DNA of 33,701 nucleotides from Parcubacteria group bacterium GW2011_GWA2_37_10 (lineage in GTDB: Bacteria > Patescibacteriota > Minisyncoccia > Minisyncoccales > Staskawiczbacteraceae). Shown here piece after piece: positions 4,946-28,459 of the stretch. Below the pieces are notes generated by a model. The model was not told the DNA's origin, made no database searches, and saw only the letters and a program-made list of their open reading frames with translations. Every line of letters begins with the position of its first letter. Positions within the stretch are counted from its first letter, which is position 1. The stretch spans positions 1 to 33,701 of the forward strand of contig LBSQ01000019.1 in assembly GCA_000992015.1 (NCBI GenBank), read 5' to 3'. The position numbers were made by a program, and so were the translations under genes.

Positions 4946-5632
4946 ATGCTAAAAGAACTTATAGACCAGTTTTATTTAGAGAATCAGAAAAATAAAGAGC
5001 AGACGCGGTTTTATATTACAGATGCCGGCAAGTGTTCTCGCGCTGTTTTTTTTAGGTTTAAAAATGCGCCGAGGGAACCGGTGCAGGCGAGGATTATGCG
5101 CATATTTGAGCACGGAGAAAACATACATAGAAATATCTTTAACATTTTATACCGTTTAAGGCTGGGAGTTACCACAGAAATTCCAATTCCTTCCCAGGAA
5201 ATAATTTCGGGAAGAGCAGATGCAATTTTATGCATCAATAACGAAAATTATGTGCTTGATATTAAAAGCATGAATAGCATGATTTTCAGAAATCTTGCGC
5301 AACCAAAAGAAGAAAACGTTTATCAAATTCAACTTTACATGCATTATTTTGACATTAAAAAAGGCATTTTGCTTTACATTGACAAAGACCAACAGGAAAT
5401 CAAAGAATTTTTTGTGGAATATGACGAACCATTAGTTAAATCTCTCTTAGATAAATTTTACGGATTAAAAGTAGAAATAGAGGCAAACAAAATTCCCGCG
5501 CGGCTTGCGGATTATCCCCGCAATTGGCAATGCAGTTATTGCGCATTTAAAGACATATGCAAGACAGCCAACGGAGACGAAATAAGCTGGGAAGATTTTA
5601 AGAAAAAAATAGAAGAATTTTCAAAAACATAA
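4946..5632 (+). CDS. Cas4/RecB-like PD-(D/E)XK nuclease with a 4-Cys cluster (stand-alone)
   Basis: N-terminal Cys (GKCSRAVFF), D...DIK core (GRADAIL...VLDIKS), QxxxY (QIQLYMHY) and C-terminal CxxCx5C (WQCSYCAFKDIC). No cas genes are nearby. Confidence 0.7.
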   Translation: MLKELIDQFYLENQKNKEQTRFYITDAGKCSRAVFFRFKNAPREPVQARIMRIFEHGENIHRNIFNILYRLRLGVTTEIPIPSQEIISGRADAILCINNENYVLDIKSMNSMIFRNLAQPKEENVYQIQLYMHYFDIKKGILLYIDKDQQEIKEFFVEYDEPLVKSLLDKFYGLKVEIEANKIPARLADYPRNWQCSYCAFKDICKTANGDEISWEDFKKKIEEFSKT

Positions 5633-5681: not shown

Positions 5682-6665
5682 TCACTGAATCATTTGCTCT
5701 GAAAGCAATAAATTATCTGCAGTTAAGATGTAAAGTTTTTTGTCTGTCTGGCTAAAATATATTTTAGAGTTTTTAATATCAACAGTTTGTTCGTCTATTA
5801 AAATTTCATCCGGCAGTTCAACCATGTTAATTTCATTTTTGTTATCAATTTCGGAAATTTTTATTTTACCTGCTTGAGTGAATATAACATAGTCGCTGTT
5901 TAACCAAAGGCAATCGCCGATTTTTTCCGAAAATCTATTCAAAAATGTTTTTTCGGAATTTGGCGAGTTTAAATAGGCAAATAAAATTTCGTAGTCATTA
6001 TAAAAAAGTATTTTTGTGTGGTCCGGGGAAATTTTAATGCTTTTAACGGGCGAGTAGAATGAATCCAAAATTTTGGTTTTTGTTTTTTCGGAAAAATCCG
6101 ACGTATAAAGCAGGTTGTCTTTTCCAATCCAATATATATTATTTTGATATGTATCAAAAGCTATGACATTTTTTATTATTAAAACATTTTTTCCGGAGTT
6201 ACTGTCATAAAGGTTGTTATTTTTTAAAATGAATCGTTCCTGTTTTGCAAAAGGGGATCGGGTTTTACCTGCCTGCGCAGGCAGGTCTGCCAAGGTTTCA
6301 AATTTAATATCTTTTTTAATCAAAAGGACGTGTTCTAATTTTGTAACTTCTTTTTCTTTTACCGGCAATGTTTTTTGGTAGTCAAAGTAACCGTTCTTTT
6401 TTATCAAAACTGTGTGGTTTTTGGGAAGCAAGTTTTGCATAAATGCAGAGTTTGTTATTATGTTGGTTTTCATAATCGGTTTTGAGTCAATATAAACCTC
6501 GGCTGGGCTAGGCCACACCCGTAAATAAATTCCTCCGGTTGCAACTATTTTTTTTTGATCAAAATCTATTCTGTAACCCAAAGAATGGCCGATAATAATC
6601 GGAGTTATAGAAAAAAACATGACCACGGAAACAATTAGTATAATGAAGCGAATTTGCTTTGACAT
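5682..6665 (-). CDS. membrane-anchored PEGA-domain protein with a beta-rich C-terminal region
   Basis: N-terminal TM helix and a PEGA-like motif (PSPAEVYIDSK...GYFDYQKTL). The repetitive beta-strand-like C-terminus is an inference. Confidence 0.6.
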   Translation of the reverse strand: MSKQIRFIILIVSVVMFFSITPIIIGHSLGYRIDFDQKKIVATGGIYLRVWPSPAEVYIDSKPIMKTNIITNSAFMQNLLPKNHTVLIKKNGYFDYQKTLPVKEKEVTKLEHVLLIKKDIKFETLADLPAQAGKTRSPFAKQERFILKNNNLYDSNSGKNVLIIKNVIAFDTYQNNIYWIGKDNLLYTSDFSEKTKTKILDSFYSPVKSIKISPDHTKILFYNDYEILFAYLNSPNSEKTFLNRFSEKIGDCLWLNSDYVIFTQAGKIKISEIDNKNEINMVELPDEILIDEQTVDIKNSKIYFSQTDKKLYILTADNLLLSEQMIQ

Positions 6666-6702
6666 TCTCTATATATAACATAAACTAACTCTTACCGCAC
6701 TA

Positions 6703-6731
6703 TTGACAATGTAAAATTTTTAGATTATTAT
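6703..6731 (+). promoter_or_regulatory. near-consensus sigma70 promoter in front of the GC-rich gene
   Basis: TTGACA (6703-6708), exactly 17 nt, TATTAT (6726-6731). AAGGAG at 6773-6778 lies 7 nt before the TTG start at 6786. Confidence 0.4.
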
Positions 6732-6785
6732 ACATGTGTATCTTGAACAGTACGGTCATGTCTTTTTTTGTGAAGGAGCAGTAAA

Positions 6786-7559
6786 TTGACAACAGAAGAA
6801 ATTTGGGAACTGTATTTACAGGGAAAGATTGAAGTCGCTGAAGCGGTGGCCACAAACGAGCTTTCCATGGTGGCCAGTTTGTCGATCAAGCAAGCATTGC
6901 ACGCGATTCTTGCCTGGTGTGCCTATCGGCGCAAGGAGTACGACGAGGCGTTGATAGAAATCGCTGGCGCTGGAGACAACCAGCGTGCATGTGAATGCCA
7001 CGCCTATGTGTTTGCTTATGCCAAAGGCTACGAGGATGACGTTAAGTTCCTTGCGCTGGTGCGTGAGCATTTAATCGGAAATATCAACGCCAGCAATGCA
7101 CTCGTAATTCGCGCAAGAATGCCCGATAGTGTCGTTGAGCACGAGCAAGTCTGGAGGATGGCGGAAAGTTTTGCCGAAGGCGCCGACGTCAGCAAACACG
7201 ACGTGTCGTTGGCAAACCTTCTGCACAACTGCGCGCGGTTTTTCCTCGACAAGGCGTGCAACCGACGCGACTTGACGTTTTCGCTCGGTCTGATTGAGGT
7301 TGCCTTAGCTCATTACGGAGAGGTGTCAAACTGGCACCATAGAGCCGCGGCAAACTTTTGGAAGTCGCACATCTTGGAGAAATTGACTGCGATTCCCGAC
7401 GCATTCGCGGCGGCCGCATTGTCTCTCAGTTTATGGGAATGCCAATGTGCCATGGAAAAGAAAACCGCGCCATTCCTCGACAAACTGGAATCGGTGCGCG
7501 CTCGCGTGGTGGATTTGGCTGAAAAGCTAGTCGAGTTCGCCAAACGAGCCCATGCGTGA
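6786..7559 (+). CDS. GC-rich ORFan, predicted all-alpha (TPR-like) 257-aa protein, TTG start
   Basis: An uninterrupted 257-codon frame in a roughly 53% G+C patch, from hand counts of lines 6841 and 7261. There is an SD plus TTG start. An in-frame TGA at 6771 excludes a longer N-terminus. No family recognised. Confidence 0.7.
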   Translation: MTTEEIWELYLQGKIEVAEAVATNELSMVASLSIKQALHAILAWCAYRRKEYDEALIEIAGAGDNQRACECHAYVFAYAKGYEDDVKFLALVREHLIGNINASNALVIRARMPDSVVEHEQVWRMAESFAEGADVSKHDVSLANLLHNCARFFLDKACNRRDLTFSLGLIEVALAHYGEVSNWHHRAAANFWKSHILEKLTAIPDAFAAAALSLSLWECQCAMEKKTAPFLDKLESVRARVVDLAEKLVEFAKRAHA

Positions 7560-7603
7560 TACATGGAATTAAGTTTCCGTAAAACGGTCTGCATCAGCAG
7601 ACA

Positions 7604-7640
7604 GACGAGTGTCGGTACATCCGAACCTCGTCTTTTTTTT
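7604..7640 (+). terminator. rho-independent terminator of the GC-rich gene
   Basis: GACGAG..TCGG-TACAT-CCGA..CTCGTC is a two-part stem, followed by T8 (7633-7640). Confidence 0.65.
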
Positions 7641-7641
7641 A

Positions 7642-8130
7642 TTATAAAATTTTAGAGAGATATTTTTTAAATTCAATCTGGTCTTTGATACTATTTCTGA
7701 CTTCAATGGCAATGCATTTTCCAAATAAAAATTTTGGCAGAGTTTTTAAATAATCAAAGTTATTCAAGTTCTCAATTGTGTGCATATCGCAATTTGTTTT
7801 AAGGTTCCAGCCGTTTAAGTGATTACAGTCAAAATATTTTTTTAAATTTTTCTTTTCAAAAACATATTCAAAATCTTTACTTAATTTTTCCATTCCAACT
7901 TTAAAATGCGCCAAATCCACGCAAAATCCTCCGATTTTTTCTATTTTAACTTTTTTTGAAACAAAATTGTCAAAATTCATTTCAAGATATAAATTTTTGT
8001 AGAGTCCCTTCCATTTTTTTATATCGTCTCTGACAAAATTTTCCTCATGAATGGTGAAATATTTTGTTTTAAATTTTTTTCTCAAAAATTCCAGTTCAGT
8101 TTTTTCCATATCGTGCCGTATATGAACCAA
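7642..8130 (-). CDS. hypothetical protein (the ATG at 8109 is the more likely start than the TTG at 8130)
   Basis: A long AT-rich ORF with host-like composition. No family recognised. Confidence 0.6.
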   Translation of the reverse strand: MVHIRHDMEKTELEFLRKKFKTKYFTIHEENFVRDDIKKWKGLYKNLYLEMNFDNFVSKKVKIEKIGGFCVDLAHFKVGMEKLSKDFEYVFEKKNLKKYFDCNHLNGWNLKTNCDMHTIENLNNFDYLKTLPKFLFGKCIAIEVRNSIKDQIEFKKYLSKIL

Positions 8131-8286
8131 CGGATTATTTTTAATTTTTGCTAATTTTTAACAGCAAATCGTCCGGTTTTTCGCCGGTTAGTCCAATCAA
8201 TATTTTGTTCGATATTTTTTTTGCCATATTATAGAAATTATACACTAAAAAATGCGCACTTGCCAATAGTGAATTTTTGAGATAAT

Positions 8287-9576
8287 ATGAAACATACAAA
8301 CAATTTAATGAATGAAAAATTTGTTATAAACGGTGGAAGAAGATTGCAGGGGACGATTGAGGTTATGGGCTCGAAAAATGCGGCCTTTCCGGTTTTGGTT
8401 GCAACAATGCTTACAAAAGAACCCTGCGTTATCGGAAATATCCCATTAGTGGAAGATGTTTTAAAAATGATCGGCATTTTGGAAAAAATGGGAGCAGATG
8501 TTGAATGGTTAGGCGCGAATAAAATAAAAATAACCTGCAAGAATATTGATCCCAAAAAATTTCCTCACGATATCATCGGCCATTTTAGAGGATCTGTTCT
8601 GTTGTGGGGAGTTTTACTGGCAAGGTTTGATAATTTTAAAACTGCAACTCCCGGCGGATGCATTATCGGAGCAAGGCCATTGGATACTCATTTCGACGTA
8701 TTTTTACAAATGGGAGTTGGCATCAAACACAGTGGAAAATTTTATAATTTTGCTAAAATAGGAAAATCGGAAAAAACGCAGGAAATTATTCTGGATGAAT
8801 TTTCAGTCACAGCAACAGAAAATGTTTTACTGTTTGCCGCCGGTTTAAATAAAAAAACAATTTTAAAAATTGCCGACCAGGATTATCAGGTCCAGGAAGT
8901 GGCAAAAGTTTTAAAAAAAATGGGAGCCAAAATAAAAATAGCAGGCCCGCATATTTTTGAAATTAAGGGATCGGAAAAATTAAAAGGTTTTACCCATCAA
9001 ATTGTTTCTGACCCAATTGAGGCCGGCACGTTTATTCTTTTGGCTTTGGCAACAAAAGGAGAGGTTTTAGTAAAAAATGTTGAACTGGGTCATTTAACGC
9101 TTTTTTTTAAAAAATTAAAAAGTTTCGGCGCTAATTTTGAATTTGTTGATAATAATTCAGTAAGGGTTCTTTTGTCGCCAAAACTCATAATAACCAAAAT
9201 TCAAAGCATGCCATATCCTGGAATACAGCCGGACTTGCAACCCATATTTGGGGTTTTGGCAACGCAGACAAAAGGCGGAACCTTAATTCACGATCCGCTT
9301 TATGAGGGCAGGTTGAAATATTTGGAAGAATTAAATAAAATGGGAGCAGATATAATTTTTTGCGATCCACACAGGGCAATTATCAATGGTCCGACGCATT
9401 TAAGGGGGATTGAAGTGCCAAGTTTGGATTTAAGGGCCGGGGCCGCGCTAATTATTGCCGGCTTGATAGCGCAGGGGACTACGACAATAAATAATGCGTA
9501 TCAGGTGGACAGGGGATATGAAAAAATTGAAGAAAGATTGCAAAAAATTGGAGCAGATATAAGGCGTGTAAAATAA
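8287..9576 (+). CDS. murA: UDP-N-acetylglucosamine 1-carboxyvinyltransferase
   Basis: Full-length MurA pattern (GGRRLQGTIEV.GSKNAA.P...A..L), the active-site loop PGGCIIGARPLD, and C-terminal VDRGYE.IEE.L..LGA.I.R. Confidence 0.95.
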   Translation: MKHTNNLMNEKFVINGGRRLQGTIEVMGSKNAAFPVLVATMLTKEPCVIGNIPLVEDVLKMIGILEKMGADVEWLGANKIKITCKNIDPKKFPHDIIGHFRGSVLLWGVLLARFDNFKTATPGGCIIGARPLDTHFDVFLQMGVGIKHSGKFYNFAKIGKSEKTQEIILDEFSVTATENVLLFAAGLNKKTILKIADQDYQVQEVAKVLKKMGAKIKIAGPHIFEIKGSEKLKGFTHQIVSDPIEAGTFILLALATKGEVLVKNVELGHLTLFFKKLKSFGANFEFVDNNSVRVLLSPKLIITKIQSMPYPGIQPDLQPIFGVLATQTKGGTLIHDPLYEGRLKYLEELNKMGADIIFCDPHRAIINGPTHLRGIEVPSLDLRAGAALIIAGLIAQGTTTINNAYQVDRGYEKIEERLQKIGADIRRVK

Positions 9577-9589
9577 ATTAAAATTAGTT

Positions 9590-10597
9590 ATGTTTAACAC
9601 TAAAATAGCAATTGATTTGGGAACCTGCAACTCACTGGTTCATGTGCGGGGCAAGGGCATTGTTTTGAATGAGCCGTCGGTTGTTGCTGTTTCGTTAATT
9701 GACAATAAAATTTTAGCAGTGGGGGAGCCGGCAAAAGAAATGATAGGCCGTACGCCGGCAGATATAAAAGTTTACAGGCCGTTAAAAGATGGAGTTATTG
9801 CTGACTATAGAGTAACGCAAGCAATGATGCGTTATTTTATTACAAGGTCAACTAAAAATTTCAGGTTGTTTAAGCCGGAATTGGTGGTGTCTGTGCCTGC
9901 GGGAATTACAAGCACGGAAAGAAGAGCAGTTATTGAGGCGGCTATGTCAGCTGGGGCGAAACAGGCTTTTGTGGCGAAAGAGCCCATTTTGGCGGCAATT
10001 GGAGCCGGAATACCCATTAATTCGTGTTCCGGACATATGATTATAAATATCGGAGGGGGAACCTCTGAAGTAGCAGTAATTTCTTTGGGAGGAATAGTAA
10101 CGGTTCATTCTGTAAGAGTTGCCGGAGATAAAATAGATGTAGCTATCGCTGAGTATATAAAGAAAAAATATAATTTAGCCATAGGGTCACAGTCAGCTGA
10201 GGAAATAAAAATTAAAGTCGGCACGGCTCTTCCGCAAAGAGAATTAAAATTTTTAGAAATTCAAGGCAGAGATTTGATTTTAGGCTTGCCGAGAAATATC
10301 AAAATATCAAACAACGAAGTCTGCGAAGCGATTTCAGACGTGCTGACGGAAATTGTGCAAGCCGCCAAAATAGTTTTGTCTGAAACTCCTCCTGAACTTT
10401 CTGCTGATATAATGAACAAAGGAATTATAATGTCCGGAGGAGGCTCATTGTTGCCGAAAATAAACGAATTGGTAGCTCAAAGCACAGGAGTTCCTTGTTT
10501 CGTTGCCGAGGAGCCGTTGTTTTGCGTGATAAAAGGAACAGGATTGGTTCTTGAACATTTGCCTGAATATAAAAAAGTTGTAATGAGCAAAAAGTAA
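9590..10597 (+). CDS. mreB: rod-shape-determining actin homologue MreB (paralogue 1)
   Basis: IAIDLGTCNSLV...NEPSVVA...GRTP...RPL.DGVIAD, with INIGGGTSEVAVISLGG and GGGSLL motifs. Confidence 0.93.
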   Translation: MFNTKIAIDLGTCNSLVHVRGKGIVLNEPSVVAVSLIDNKILAVGEPAKEMIGRTPADIKVYRPLKDGVIADYRVTQAMMRYFITRSTKNFRLFKPELVVSVPAGITSTERRAVIEAAMSAGAKQAFVAKEPILAAIGAGIPINSCSGHMIINIGGGTSEVAVISLGGIVTVHSVRVAGDKIDVAIAEYIKKKYNLAIGSQSAEEIKIKVGTALPQRELKFLEIQGRDLILGLPRNIKISNNEVCEAISDVLTEIVQAAKIVLSETPPELSADIMNKGIIMSGGGSLLPKINELVAQSTGVPCFVAEEPLFCVIKGTGLVLEHLPEYKKVVMSKK

Positions 10598-10606
10598 TTT
10601 TAATTT

Positions 10607-11419
10607 ATGCTAATTGGGCACCAAAAACAGTGGAATTTTTTGAAGAGAAAATATGAAACAGGGCAATTGTCTCATGCGTATTTATTTGTTGGAGCAAACG
10701 GAATCGGTAAAAAATTATTTGCAAAAGAATTTGCCGGATTTATCGGCTACAAGTTTCCGGATTTGATGGTTGTTGCCGCCTCGCCAGAAGGCGAGGCGAG
10801 CCTCGCCCCAAAGGGGCGGGAGACCGAAATACCAATCGCAAAAATCAGGGAAGTTCAAAATTTCTTGGCATACAAATCTTATAATGGCGGTTTCAAAATT
10901 GTGATTATTGATAATGCGCACTTGATGAACCATGAAGCGCAGAGCTGTTTTTTAAAAACGCTTGAAGAACCGAAAGGAGAAACGGTTTTATTTTTAATCT
11001 CCTCAAAGCCGGATATGCTTTTGCCGACGATTTTTTCACGATGCCAGACAGTTAAATTTTTTAAGCCCAAAAATTTGCCGGAAAATTCAGAAAAATCAGT
11101 AAAAGAGCAAGAGTTGTTAAAGGGTCTGCTTGCTGTGGTTGGAACTAATTTTGCGGATAAATTTAAATATGTAAAATTAATTGATTTTGAAAAGCAAGAT
11201 GCCGGTGAAATTGTGGAAGTTTTGCAGAAATATTTAAGGCATTTATTAATGGTTAAAATCGGAGCAGAACAGTCAGACCCGAAAGATGTCGGTTTTTTGA
11301 AGTATTCTTTTACCGAAATTAAAAAAGCAATAAACGTGTCAGAAGATATAAGCAGTAAATTGCTTTTTACCAATGCCAACCAAAAATTGGCGATAGAAAT
11401 ATTATTAATGGAAATTTAA
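10607..11419 (+). CDS. holB: DNA polymerase III subunit delta prime
   Basis: HAYLF.G..GIGK P-loop-like motif, VIIDNAH..N..AQ..FLKTLEEP, and the SRC motif (FSRCQ). Confidence 0.85.
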   Translation: MLIGHQKQWNFLKRKYETGQLSHAYLFVGANGIGKKLFAKEFAGFIGYKFPDLMVVAASPEGEASLAPKGRETEIPIAKIREVQNFLAYKSYNGGFKIVIIDNAHLMNHEAQSCFLKTLEEPKGETVLFLISSKPDMLLPTIFSRCQTVKFFKPKNLPENSEKSVKEQELLKGLLAVVGTNFADKFKYVKLIDFEKQDAGEIVEVLQKYLRHLLMVKIGAEQSDPKDVGFLKYSFTEIKKAINVSEDISSKLLFTNANQKLAIEILLMEI

Positions 11420-11420
11420 T

Positions 11421-11975
11421 ATGAGTTATAAAGAATTTATTGATAAAGCAAAACCGGAGTTTGAAAAAGCATTTAAGTTTTTTGACGGCGAAATTGCAAA
11501 AATTAGGACATCAAGGGCATCGCCGGCATTAGTTGAGGATATAACCGTAGATGCTTTTGGTTCAAAATTTGCCCTAAAACAATTGGGAGCCATCTCCACG
11601 GCTCAAACAAACCAGATTGTCATTCAGCCATGGGATATCTCGTATGTTGAGCCGATACAAAAAGCAATTTCACAATCAGGGCTCGGAATGTCTTCGGCCG
11701 TTGACAAAAATGTAATAAGGCTAAGTCTGCCCCTTTTGACAGAGGAATATAGGCAAGGTTTGGCTAAAATTCTTGGCGAAAAGGCGGAGCAATGCAAACA
11801 GACAATAAGGCGCCAAAGAGAGGACGTGTGGAACAAAATTCAGGATGCGCAAAAAGAAAAGAAGATTTCAGAAGACGACAAATTCAGAGGCAAGGACGAA
11901 CTTCAAAAACTTATTGACGAATATAACGAAAAAATAAAAAATTTAGTGGAAAAAAAGAAAAACGAACTTATTTAA
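11421..11975 (+). CDS. frr: ribosome recycling factor
   Basis: KIRTSRASPALVEDI.VD.FG....LKQLG.IS......I.I.PWD and IRL.LP.LTEE.R....K motifs. Confidence 0.95.
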   Translation: MSYKEFIDKAKPEFEKAFKFFDGEIAKIRTSRASPALVEDITVDAFGSKFALKQLGAISTAQTNQIVIQPWDISYVEPIQKAISQSGLGMSSAVDKNVIRLSLPLLTEEYRQGLAKILGEKAEQCKQTIRRQREDVWNKIQDAQKEKKISEDDKFRGKDELQKLIDEYNEKIKNLVEKKKNELI

Positions 11976-11976
11976 T

Positions 11977-13080
11977 ATGATATCTTCAATTTTAACCTTA
12001 GTAATAGCCTTTTTTAGTTTAATTGCCCTGATGGTTATTCATGAATTCGGGCATTTTATTGTCGCAAAAAAATTCGGCGTCAGGGTTGATGAATTCGGGA
12101 TCGGATATCCGCCCAGAATTTTTGGCAAAAAAATCGGAGAAACAATTTATTCAATAAATTGGTTGCCATTGGGGGCGTTTGTCAGAATTTATGGAGAGGA
12201 AGGAGGGGTAGATGATTATAGAAGTTTTGTAGGATTAAAAATTTGGAAAAGAGTTCTTATTGTTATTGGAGGAGTTGTTGCATTCTGGATCGCTTCTATT
12301 ATTTTATTTTCAATAGTTTTTGCTATGGGAGCGGATATTCCCATTGGAGATCAAGATATTCAGGGCGTGGCAGGCGCGCAAGTTAAAATTATTGCGGTTG
12401 AGTCTGACTCGCCGGCAGAAAGAGCGGGACTAAAGGCAGGCGACTCGTTGTTGGGATTTAAAAAAATAGCGGATTTCCAAGATTTTACAAAGCAGCATGC
12501 CGGCGAAAAAATTGATTTAAAAATTGGGAGAGAAAATAAAACTCTTGATATTTTTTTAACACCGCGGGTAAATCCCGAGGTAGGTCAAGGCGCAATTGGA
12601 ATCGGGCTTGAGAGACTGGCAACGTTTATTAAAAAATATCCGTGGTACGAAGCTCCGATTCAGGGGGCGATTTACACGTGGCAAACCACGGCAAACGGTT
12701 TTACCAGTCTTTACGGCGTTTTTGCAAATATGTTTTCAGGAAAAGGTGTTCCCCAAGGAGCAGAACTCGCTGGGCCGTTGGGGATCACAGTATTTTTAGC
12801 GAGAGCAGTTGATTATGGGCCCGGATTTTTTCTGTATTTTATCGGAACCATTTCAGTTTTTGTAGCAATATTCAATCTGTTTCCTATCCCGGCTTTAGAC
12901 GGGGGGAAATTGATATTTTTGGCAGTTGAAAAAATAATGAAAAAACCCGTTCCTGCAAAAATAGAACAAAACATAACTGTAGTATTTTTTATTTTGTTGA
13001 TTTCCTTGTCTATTTTTGTAACAATAAGGTTTGATATTCCGAGGTTTTCTGACTTTTTAAAGTCTAGTTTGCAAAGGTAA
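11977..13080 (+). CDS. rseP: RIP (site-2) zinc metalloprotease, M50 family, with a PDZ domain
   Basis: HEFGHF..AK..GV.V.EF.IG.P HExxH motif, a PDZ-like segment (SPAERAGLKAGD), a C-terminal NLFPIPALDGG motif and multiple TM helices. Confidence 0.9.
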   Translation: MISSILTLVIAFFSLIALMVIHEFGHFIVAKKFGVRVDEFGIGYPPRIFGKKIGETIYSINWLPLGAFVRIYGEEGGVDDYRSFVGLKIWKRVLIVIGGVVAFWIASIILFSIVFAMGADIPIGDQDIQGVAGAQVKIIAVESDSPAERAGLKAGDSLLGFKKIADFQDFTKQHAGEKIDLKIGRENKTLDIFLTPRVNPEVGQGAIGIGLERLATFIKKYPWYEAPIQGAIYTWQTTANGFTSLYGVFANMFSGKGVPQGAELAGPLGITVFLARAVDYGPGFFLYFIGTISVFVAIFNLFPIPALDGGKLIFLAVEKIMKKPVPAKIEQNITVVFFILLISLSIFVTIRFDIPRFSDFLKSSLQR

Positions 13081-18448: not shown

Positions 18449-18520
18449 GCGGGTGTCGTATAACGGCTATTATGATTCCTTCCCAAGGAATAGACGGCGG
18501 TCCGACTCCGCTCACCCGCT
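18449..18520 (+). tRNA. tRNA-Gly (anticodon CCC)
   Basis: Hand-folded cloverleaf with acceptor GCGGGTG/CACCCGC. It carries the G1:C72, C2:G71, G3:C70 and U73 glycine identity set. The anticodon loop is TT-CCC-AA. The T-loop TCCGACT is unusual in having C55. No CCA is encoded. Confidence 0.85.
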
Positions 18521-18609
18521 TGACAAAGTATAATATAAAGTGTAAACTTTAACTGTGTTGCTCTTTGAGAGAAACGAGGTTCCAATCACCTTTTTGAGGA
18601 GTAAGTCCA

Positions 18610-19638
18610 ATGCCGATTTTGATGCCGAGTTTTTTTGGTCCGATATCTGTAAGAACATTGGCCGATTTGATCGCCGCTACGGCAACGGCAGATGAAACTA
18701 GTCCCGATTCAAAAAACGGGTGGGAGACAGATACTGCTTACCGCCTAGTTGAACGGCTTGTCATAGGCAGATGCAGTGATCATGGAGCTTTTGCTGACAT
18801 TGCCCAGCGAGTACTTATGATGGTATACAATCTTCCTGAGGCGAGGGTATTATCGCTCCTTGCCAAGTTTAACGGCGTCCGTCGTCTTCCAATGAACTCC
18901 GGCCTCGAGCAAGTTCTTGCGGCGATGGTAGGGGAATTGGAGCAAGCCATTGCTATGTTGCCAGACGGCACGAGAAAAATGCGTTGCCGGTCGTTTCTCA
19001 AATACCAAGAAGGTATTTTCTACGACGCGTGCGGCAGGTTTGACCTTGCGGCCGCAATGCACATTCAATCAGCATACGAGGCTAGTCGTATAAACGACGC
19101 GCCAGGAGCGACGATTGCTCAGTTTTGCGAAATGGCTTGCCGTTTCAAACATGCCTTGTGTCAAGACAAAATGGATGACGCGGACGTCTGGTTTCAGTGC
19201 ATGGAAGGAAGCTTTGCACAAGTTGTTGAAGCAACGCGCAATTCACCCTTTCAGGTGTCGTGGGCAGAGGATAACTGTCCTGCGTGCATGTTGGCGGCGT
19301 GCATATGGGTTGATCAAGCCCCCAAGGAATGGAGGGCTTGGGTGGCGACCCTTGTTGCTACCGCCAAGCTCGCCAAAGTGTATGAGTACGATGGAAGGTT
19401 TGCCCAGGCGGTGGAAATGGCTTTTATGGGTAACCCTGAAGCTGATGCGGCATTGATCGCAATTTCAGGCGACAGCGTCAACCCTGAATTGCAGGCGACA
19501 GTCTTGTTGTTGCTCGCCCGCCGTGCTATGCGCGCGGGAAAGAGAGATGCGGCGACAGAATTTGTCAATCGCATGCCAAAAGAAGGCGCACAACACGTGT
19601 GCGCTGTTGCCCAGCGCTTGCTGGCAATTAATAAGTGA
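18610..19638 (+). CDS. GC-rich ORFan, predicted all-alpha (TPR-like) 342-aa protein
   Basis: An uninterrupted 342-codon frame in a roughly 57% G+C patch (hand count of line 19261). GAGGAG lies 8 nt before the ATG. TPR-like helical pairs occur (YQEGIFYDACGRFDLAAAMHIQSAYEA; YEYDGRFAQAVEMAF). No family recognised. Confidence 0.7.
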   Translation: MPILMPSFFGPISVRTLADLIAATATADETSPDSKNGWETDTAYRLVERLVIGRCSDHGAFADIAQRVLMMVYNLPEARVLSLLAKFNGVRRLPMNSGLEQVLAAMVGELEQAIAMLPDGTRKMRCRSFLKYQEGIFYDACGRFDLAAAMHIQSAYEASRINDAPGATIAQFCEMACRFKHALCQDKMDDADVWFQCMEGSFAQVVEATRNSPFQVSWAEDNCPACMLAACIWVDQAPKEWRAWVATLVATAKLAKVYEYDGRFAQAVEMAFMGNPEADAALIAISGDSVNPELQATVLLLLARRAMRAGKRDAATEFVNRMPKEGAQHVCAVAQRLLAINK

Positions 19639-20928: not shown

Positions 20929-20999
20929 GCCGTTTTAGCTTAGTGGTAAAGCAACGGTTTCGTAAACCGTAGACGCAAGTTCGATTCTTGCAAGCGGCT
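20929..20999 (+). tRNA. tRNA-Thr (anticodon CGT)
   Basis: Hand-folded cloverleaf with acceptor GCCGTTT/AAGCGGC, D arm GCTT-AGTGGTA-AAGC, anticodon loop TT-CGT-AA and T arm GCAAG-TTCGATT-CTTGC. Confidence 0.9.
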
Positions 21000-21036
21000 C
21001 ATGTAAATCTTTGCGGTTTGTGGTAGTATAAAATCA

Positions 21037-28250: not shown

Positions 28251-28321
28251 TCCGGGATCTGCTAATGGTAGGCAACATCCCTCTGAAGGATGGAATCTTG
28301 GTTCGAATCCAAGTCCCGGAA
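28251..28321 (+). tRNA. tRNA-Gln (anticodon CTG)
   Basis: Hand-folded cloverleaf with a U1:A72 acceptor (TCCGGGA/TCCCGGA), which is characteristic of bacterial tRNA-Gln. The anticodon loop is CT-CTG-AA and the T arm is CTTGG-TTCGAAT-CCAAG. Confidence 0.9.
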
Positions 28322-28459
28322 CACGCTTATGCTAAGTCAAGTTATAACATTAAGTCAACGTTAGAACTGTGGATAAATAATATGAATATGCTATAATGGG
28401 CTTGATGAGGGTTACAGGATATAATATTATAAAAAAATTAAAGTAAAAGAACAGAAAGG

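Follow-up and report, generated by a model that had tools for sequence, protein, structure and literature searches.

The window analyzed here is the whole 33,701-nucleotide stretch of contig LBSQ01000019.1 from Parcubacteria group bacterium GW2011_GWA2_37_10, and related loci on other contigs carry handles such as L001 or L014. We examined a single gene in this window that encodes a 257-residue protein resembling a tetratricopeptide repeat (TPR) solenoid and that forms a GC-rich block among AT-rich genes. The gene, its expression signals, and its neighbors are arranged as follows, with the basis of each assignment in parentheses.

5682..6665, minus strand: PEGA-domain protein, the divergent upstream neighbor (Pfam PEGA, E 1e-5)
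6703..6731, plus strand: sigma-70-type promoter, TTGACA-17 nt-TATTAT (consensus scan, 11/12; aligned in orthologs)
6773..6778, plus strand: Shine-Dalgarno sequence AAGGAG, 7 nt 5' of the TTG at 6786 (read from the sequence)
6786..7559, plus strand: coding sequence of the 257-amino-acid (aa) TPR-like solenoid protein, with a TTG start (open reading frame [ORF] list, homologs, ratio of nonsynonymous to synonymous divergence [dN/dS], predicted structure)
7555..7602, plus strand: two hairpins of the 3' untranslated region (UTR), preceding the terminator (fold of 7555-7650)
7603..7640, plus strand: intrinsic terminator, a two-part hairpin (7603-7633) followed by T8 (fold)
7642..8130, minus strand: 162-aa ORF, the convergent downstream neighbor, GC 0.26 (ORF list)
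8287..9576, plus strand: murA (EPSP_synthase family), a separate transcription unit (Pfam, E 2e-69)

The initial annotation described this gene as its own transcription unit, wedged between the start of a divergent gene and the end of a convergent one. Both descriptions hold: the promoter, the AAGGAG sequence, and the hairpin-T8 terminator were all recovered, and the flanking genes are the PEGA gene and the 162-aa ORF. The promoter is among the two best matches of the scanned region, and a TTGACA...TAT(T/A)(A/T)T box aligns at the equivalent site upstream of the L001, L004, and L007 orthologs. AAGGAG is also present in L001, and an in-frame TGA at 6771 closes the reading frame upstream. Folding of 7555-7650 yields three hairpins with a minimum free energy (MFE) of -32.6 kcal/mol (z = -5.2). 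The terminator has an outer stem of AGACGAG/CTCGTCT and an inner stem of TCGG/CCGA; a GGCTC-T7 terminator is conserved in the aligned L004, L007, and L009 orthologs, and L001 shows a T-run. The sequence of the two preceding hairpins is not conserved among orthologs. The PEGA gene lies near the TPR gene in other lineages too, and homologs of the 162-aa ORF, which matches no family, were found only in L001 and L014.

The G+C content (GC) of the ORF at 6786-7559 is 0.528, with 0.58, 0.40, and 0.61 at the first, second, and third codon positions, compared to a mean of 0.351 for the 37 other window ORFs of at least 100 aa. The third-position GC (GC3) of these other ORFs is 0.326 ± 0.043, which places the TPR gene about 6.5 standard deviations (SD) from their mean. 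In 300-bp windows, GC steps from 0.33 to 0.52-0.55 and then to 0.27 across the edges of the ORF, as expected from the sharp jump at the gene boundaries that had been reported for this locus. Outside the block, GC is 0.24-0.27 on the 5' side of the promoter region and 0.31 more than 60 nt past the stop codon; the 5' UTR is at 0.36-0.38, and GC3 is reduced in the first 45 codons. The GC-rich block is coextensive with the transcribed unit of the gene. Codon usage is shifted relative to the other window genes, with G/C-ending codons preferred for nearly every amino acid, and the composition of the protein is shifted as well (Ala 17%, with low Lys and Ile).

A chimeric assembly is ruled out because an independent Joint Genome Institute (JGI) contig, L018, is 98.9% identical to positions 6042-8150 of the window and spans both junctions. 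The arrangement, for which the initial annotation had called for a chimera check, is thus real, and the same gene arrangement occurs in assemblies of other samples (L014; L001/L002/L003/L019). L018 and the window also differ by an insertion of ~95 nt in the spacer upstream of murA (8150/8151) and by a segment swap of 61 versus 28 nt (10765-10825) inside a holB-like ORF (10607-11419).

A word-indexed search recovered 14 homologs of the window protein with 46-81% identity, the complete ones being 255-265 aa long; ORF length is conserved at 255-261 aa. An exhaustive profile search returned 130 clusters (at the 50% identity level) at E <= 1e-3. The protein is therefore not the ORFan that it was taken for, and a dN/dS of 0.08-0.09 for the closest ortholog pairs indicates a real coding gene, supplying the coding signal that had been sought in such comparisons.

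Eight lineages, including the window, carry the TPR gene between murA and a block of rpsI and PEGA genes. Syntenic homologs with 59-81% identity are found in L014, L001/L002, L004/L005, L017, L015/L016, and the P0011 contig, flanked on one side by murA-mreB-holB-frr-rseP and on the other by the PEGA / rpsI-rplM-rplQ-rpoA block. A murA-type gene adjoins the TPR gene in the window, L014, L001/2, L004/5, L017, L016, the P0011 contig, and L028, and a 419-aa ORF occupies the murA-equivalent position in L022. In L028, where the homolog is 36% identical and the host GC is 0.45, the order is rpsI-MFS-gene-murA-mreB (MFS, major facilitator superfamily). The interval between the PEGA gene and the ORF at 7642 had been singled out for a presence-or-absence comparison among relatives; the gene is present in all seven related lineages recovered. 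With respect to murA, it points one way in the clade of the window, L014, and L001 and the opposite way in the other lineages.

The protein has diverged at roughly the pace of its flanking genes. The protein identities between the window and L001 (79%) and between the window and L004 (63%) fall inside the range of 14 flanking proteins, and the identities of the TPR protein correlate with those of MurA (r = 0.86). The deep structure of the family is congruent with that of MurA, separating clade A from clade B, and MurA is only 46-50% identical between the two clades. These data show a monocistronic, long-resident, and essentially vertically inherited gene whose linkage to the murA / rpsI-cluster locus is ancestral. 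The outcome that the initial annotation had named as refuting a recent acquisition is thus what is seen: AT-rich relatives have this gene, with its GC-rich composition, at the equivalent locus, and novelty does not account for its high GC.

Two other genes in this neighborhood vary among the lineages. A PD-(D/E)XK / Cas4-like nuclease gene at window positions 4946-5632, between rpsI and the PEGA gene, is kept in L001 and L014 and was not seen in the clade B loci. Genes of the 23S_rRNA_IVP family (PF05635) interrupt the murA-mreB-frr-rseP row in L016 (1367-1735) and L017 (2503-2877), at a different place in each.

The GC excess is a trait of the family. In the AT-rich relatives, the GC of the TPR gene is 0.50-0.56, versus 0.36-0.44 for the remaining contig. 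We compared the GC3 of the gene with that of neighboring ORFs in 18 lineages; in 14, the gene is higher by 0.10-0.30. Relatives with only 25-36% identity show the excess too (z 3-8), and the GC3 values of gene and flanks are 0.58 and 0.46 in L028, 0.42 and 0.22 in L030, 0.39 and 0.23 in L031, and 0.34 and 0.24 in L032. Three of the four exceptions (L009, L021, and L033) have a host GC3 of at least 0.5. A regression across lineages gives a gene GC3 of 0.52 x flank + 0.33. The family GC3 is ~0.5-0.65 in AT-rich hosts and coincides with the genome's value only in hosts with a GC3 of at least 0.5. What stands out is that an otherwise ordinary TPR gene has long kept a GC-rich composition that is confined to the gene itself.

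A GC-rich single-gene block is not unique in the window, as a second one is formed by the ORF at 18610-19638 (plus strand; 342 aa; GC 0.52; GC3 0.53). It lies directly 3' of tRNA-Gly(CCC) and has its own TTGACA-17-TAAACT promoter and GAGGAG ribosome-binding site (block 18521-19638). The protein is predicted to be all-alpha and TPR-like, with a predicted local distance difference test (pLDDT) score of 87 in AlphaFold2 and only TPR matches in Foldseek, and a common origin of the two GC-rich window genes is rejected by hhalign (probability 1%). The family of this second gene is small (P0016-P0024), has a GC of 0.52 in the AT-rich L011 and L012 in other gene contexts, and is absent from the syntenic site in L001. 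In contrast to the gene at 6786-7559, it has the look of a variable accessory gene. Two unrelated TPR-like genes sharing the anomaly suggest that such genes may form a class in these small genomes. All three window tRNAs have a wobble C (Gly-CCC, Thr-CGU, and Gln-CUG, at 18449-18520, 20929-21000, and 28251-28322); tRNAs of this kind decode G-ending codons alone, a class that is scarce in the AT-rich genome and common in the two GC-rich genes.

Additional GC-rich ORFs (GC 0.43-0.60) occur in or near the rpsI-to-murA interval of AT-rich relatives. All are lineage-specific, and GC-rich accessory genes appear to accumulate in this interval. Except for the NUDIX gene, none of the following has a Pfam or PADLOC match.

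L001, 7137-7583 and 7793-8185: two lineage-specific GC-rich ORFs
L004, 9343-9840: lineage-specific GC-rich ORF, NUDIX gene
L004, about 11814-12053: lineage-specific GC-rich ORF
L015, 1491-1967: lineage-specific GC-rich ORF
L017, 7197-8288: lineage-specific GC-rich ORF

The best overall explanation, which we hold with moderate confidence, is an old, long-resident TPR gene whose GC-rich composition is maintained and whose product is probably a binding adaptor. Alternatively, the composition could be a relic, in which case the gene came into the ancestor of the AT-rich clade from a GC-rich genome, or the genome itself was once GC-richer, and amelioration is incomplete with no force holding the composition. 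We consider a relic improbable. It would agree with the placement of the nearest gene-tree outgroups, L021 and L009, in hosts with a GC3 of 0.63, with the difference in GC3 among sister genes (0.48 in L004 and L017 versus 0.61 in L015), and with the gene in L026, which is already at host composition. However, the excess is also present in the very distant AT-host members L030-L032, and the synonymous sites of the gene do not evolve more slowly than those of the flanks: synonymous divergence (dS) is 1.4-1.6 for the closest pairs, saturated beyond them, and not below that of flanking genes.

We evaluated the relic explanation further with a two-state “memory” test, which takes conserved codons in the 14 flanking genes and scores their synonymous third positions as G/C (S) or A/T (W). 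The square root of the S/W state correlation bounds the ancestral excess that can survive neutral decay. The correlation is 0.21 for the window and L001 and 0.08 for the window and L004, so one acquisition in the distant past would have had to start from a GC3 of ~1.0. The bootstrapped medians are 0.97 (confidence interval [CI], 0.85-1.13) at the shallower node, shared with L001, and 1.04 (CI, 0.78-1.48) at the deeper node, shared with L004, and the probability of an ancestral GC3 <= 0.9 is 0.13-0.20. Such values exceed the GC3 of outgroup TPR genes, which is only 0.57-0.66, and a requirement equally high at the shallower and at the deeper node is incompatible with decay. A count of 61 S-to-W versus 26 W-to-S changes might be read as net amelioration, but this reading is rejected, as majority parsimony with three taxa produces such an artifact when a stationary sequence is GC-rich. 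The method expects ~1.7:1 at a stationary GC3 of 0.63, and control flank genes show the mirror bias, 38:65. The synonymous sites have turned over, and the composition is therefore best read as a maintained equilibrium, not a leftover.

A weak, uniform, gene-limited pull toward GC fits these observations best. By our own arithmetic, a uniform G/C advantage of S ~1.1 per site would be enough to reach a GC3 of 0.61 where mutation alone would settle at 0.33, and it would leave the total synonymous rate unchanged; both agree with what is observed. Among the possible causes, none of which is proven, we rank transcript-level selection above recombination-linked GC bias and the latter above a relic composition. 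Transcript-level selection is the most likely cause, with a share somewhat short of half of the scenarios in which the composition is maintained, and it is favored because the GC-rich block matches the transcribed unit and relaxes in the first 45 codons. Selection would then act on the whole transcript, favoring an AU-poor and hence stable or differently handled mRNA. That synonymous GC is actively held near 50-65% despite AT drift by selection on the nucleic acid itself is a tentative proposal, which we regard as possible and no better than that. Classical translational selection is unlikely, since GC3 is equal at invariant and variable residues (Mantel-Haenszel odds ratio, 0.96) and the ribosomal-protein genes in the window are not GC3-rich; selection for translational accuracy is rejected on the same grounds.

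The product of the gene is, with confidence on the basis of its predicted structure, a TPR-type alpha-solenoid. AlphaFold2, run with the family alignment, predicts 13 helices in consecutive hairpins (pLDDT, 94; predicted template modeling [pTM] score, 0.87), and the 50 best Foldseek matches in the PDB are almost all TPR proteins with a probability of mostly 1.0 (best E, 4.6e-3; template modeling [TM] score up to 0.65). The window protein has no Pfam match at E <= 0.1, and 13 of 31 family members match TPR_2 or TPR_16, with best E values of 1e-10 to 1e-12. Family relatives also match the ANAPC3 model, the family profile matches TPR chains in the PDB at E 8e-6, and one distant member is named “tetratricopeptide repeat protein” by NCBI. 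The earlier impression of a TPR-like stack of helical hairpins with no recognizable catalytic family is borne out, and the check for a known family leads to generic TPR matches only. No dedicated Pfam or NCBIfam model was found for the family, and a full-text literature search returned nothing on either the family or the phenomenon.

Conservation within the family is concentrated in the motifs NAL.IRAR, ANLLHN..RFF, and AHYG...NWHHRAA, and the invariant residues are N104, R109, N144, N148, R151, Y177-G178, N182-W-H-H-R-A-A188, and W217. The ~255-aa protein has no signal peptide, and no catalytic motif was recognized in it. It may act as a cytoplasmic peptide- or ligand-binding adaptor in which the invariant Asn, Arg, and His residues on successive helices would line a binding groove. 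The invariant Asn and Arg residues that recur on successive helices resemble a “carboxylate clamp,” a peptide-binding feature of Hsp-organizing TPR domains, which we take as a lead only. Our best guess, at low confidence, is a cytoplasmic TPR binding adaptor possibly tied to envelope-precursor metabolism. Functional hints are limited to the conserved proximity of murA and to an MFS transporter that neighbors the gene in L028, L030, and L031, and the murA neighborhood is the sole suggestion of a link to cell-envelope precursor synthesis. An immunity or anti-defense role, which the initial annotation had entertained, finds no support: a defense role is rejected on the PADLOC scan, which returned 0 matches, and no relative was found in phage, plasmid, or IMG/VR collections.

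Several observations weigh against a maintained composition in an adaptor gene. The memory bound is rough, as it depends on a two-state model and short flanks, and 13-20% of the bootstraps allow an ancestral GC3 <= 0.9. L026 has an AT-rich host and no GC3 excess (0.31 versus 0.33), which shows that the GC-rich trait is not obligatory for the protein. The taxonomic anchor is a single genome, a Candidatus Andersenbacteria metagenome-assembled genome (MAG) that is the only match in the one-genome-per-species GTDB set; gene content and sample types suggest the wider label of Parcubacteria-type CPR bacteria. At the transcript level, the mRNA MFE relative to synonymous shuffles in the AT-host orthologs other than L004 (z = -1.65 to -2.9) is only marginally lower than that of control genes (mean, -1.3), RNAalifold detects no conserved fold across 10 orthologs and 795 columns, and comparison with the shuffles reveals no 3- or 4-mer that is consistently underused, which also rejects the avoidance of a nuclease or regulatory motif. 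The adaptor function is read from fold and neighborhood only, and murA is a separate, sometimes divergent, transcription unit. Finally, the window, L014, and L001 are equidistant in the TPR gene (nucleotide identity, 0.756-0.766), in contrast to four flanking genes in which the window and L014 are much closer (0.81-0.87 versus 0.70-0.78). This equidistance, together with a repeat in L004, favors a recombination-linked cause.

Under such a cause, the cassette would be a hotspot at which related lineages exchange alleles or undergo gene conversion, and GC-biased heteroduplex repair (GC-biased gene conversion [gBGC]) would keep it GC-rich, or, in a variant, alleles of GC-richer relatives would repeatedly overwrite it. 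We judge this unlikely, to the same degree as a relic composition. The repeat is a 51-nt direct repeat in L004/L005 (9844-9894 and 10799-10849; spacing, 955 nt; 50/51 positions identical) that brackets the cassette. Its copies each form a terminator-like two-part hairpin followed by T7, one after the NUDIX gene and the other after the TPR gene, and could be a duplication or insertion scar; the repeat was not found in any other fetched locus, and the window has no meaningful flanking repeat around the TPR gene. The flipped orientation relative to murA, the accumulation of other GC-rich ORFs at the locus, and a force that acts evenly on all amino acids and sites, in line with gBGC, also point toward recombination. 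However, the sharp GC step matches the transcript with no spill into murA or the PEGA gene, the AT-host alleles group by host clade rather than with GC-host donors, and a mobile carrier was not found in the phage, plasmid, or IMG/VR collections. A GC3 shift of 0.28 would be a very large effect for bacterial gBGC.

A structured noncoding RNA or an overlapping gene that makes up or lies within the block, with GC kept for base pairing, is very improbable. GC buffering independent of the genome is a hallmark of structural RNA genes, and all seven AT-host orthologs examined fold slightly better than synonymous shuffles, the L004 ortholog (10001-10771) reaching z = -7.8 with no long inverted repeat to explain it. 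However, control genes reach z = -3.6, Rfam gives no match at gathering scores or at E <= 1, the RNAalifold consensus over the 795 columns is -20.9 kcal/mol with a covariation term of -0.5, no alternative or antisense frame is open in all orthologs, and purifying selection on the protein is clear. We give equally little credence to a recent transfer of a foreign single-gene island from a donor of higher GC (perhaps an episymbiont's host), a reading that synteny refutes and that the initial annotation proposed from the atypical composition and the gene's own promoter and terminator. Lineage-specific GC-rich ORFs do exist (window 18610-19638, L001 7137-8185, L015 1491-1967), but the TPR gene shares its locus and composition with at least seven other lineages across the deep MurA divide, its dS is at or near saturation even for the nearest relatives, there are no flanking repeats, integrase, or tRNA nearby in the window, and the empty phage, plasmid, and IMG/VR searches reject a mobile carrier. 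Nothing in the analysis supports a higher-GC host as the donor.

Composition-based detection of horizontal gene transfer would wrongly call the TPR gene foreign; for candidate phyla whose genomes come solely from metagenomes, island calls of this kind need a synteny check. The gene also defines a conserved, uncharacterized TPR family positionally linked to murA in bacteria with a poorly known envelope biology. If a gene-limited force toward G/C does operate here, the locus would offer a compact natural setting in which bacterial biased gene conversion and selection on mRNA composition could be told apart; if that force is selection on the nucleic acid itself, the transcript as well as the protein would carry a constraint so far recognized mainly for structural RNAs.

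The TPR gene can be compared with four known systems. Like a genomic island, it is a single gene with its own expression signals and a sharp anomaly in GC and codon usage, but it occupies the same locus in deeply diverged relatives, its composition has outlasted synonymous turnover, and its locus in the window lacks mobility genes and att-like repeats. Like the rRNA and tRNA genes of AT-rich genomes, which form isolated GC-rich blocks with a GC of ~50-60% whatever the genome GC, it stands out as an isolated GC-rich block, but it is protein coding under purifying selection and has no conserved RNA structure. The LapB/YciM type offers what we take to be an analogy at the protein level, namely, a TPR protein encoded close to the UDP-GlcNAc branch point, represented here by murA, on which it could conceivably act; this type is matched weakly by only 1 of 31 family members (E 0.008), and the window family lacks both its rubredoxin-type C-terminal domain and its membrane anchor. 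With TPR adaptors such as the TPR domains of LGN, KLC1, OGT, and PilF, the window protein shares an all-alpha solenoid of stacked hairpins. It differs in falling below the Pfam TPR threshold and in matching no solved structure below E 4.6e-3, and the motifs AHYG...NWHHRAA and ANLLHN..RFF are specific to its family.

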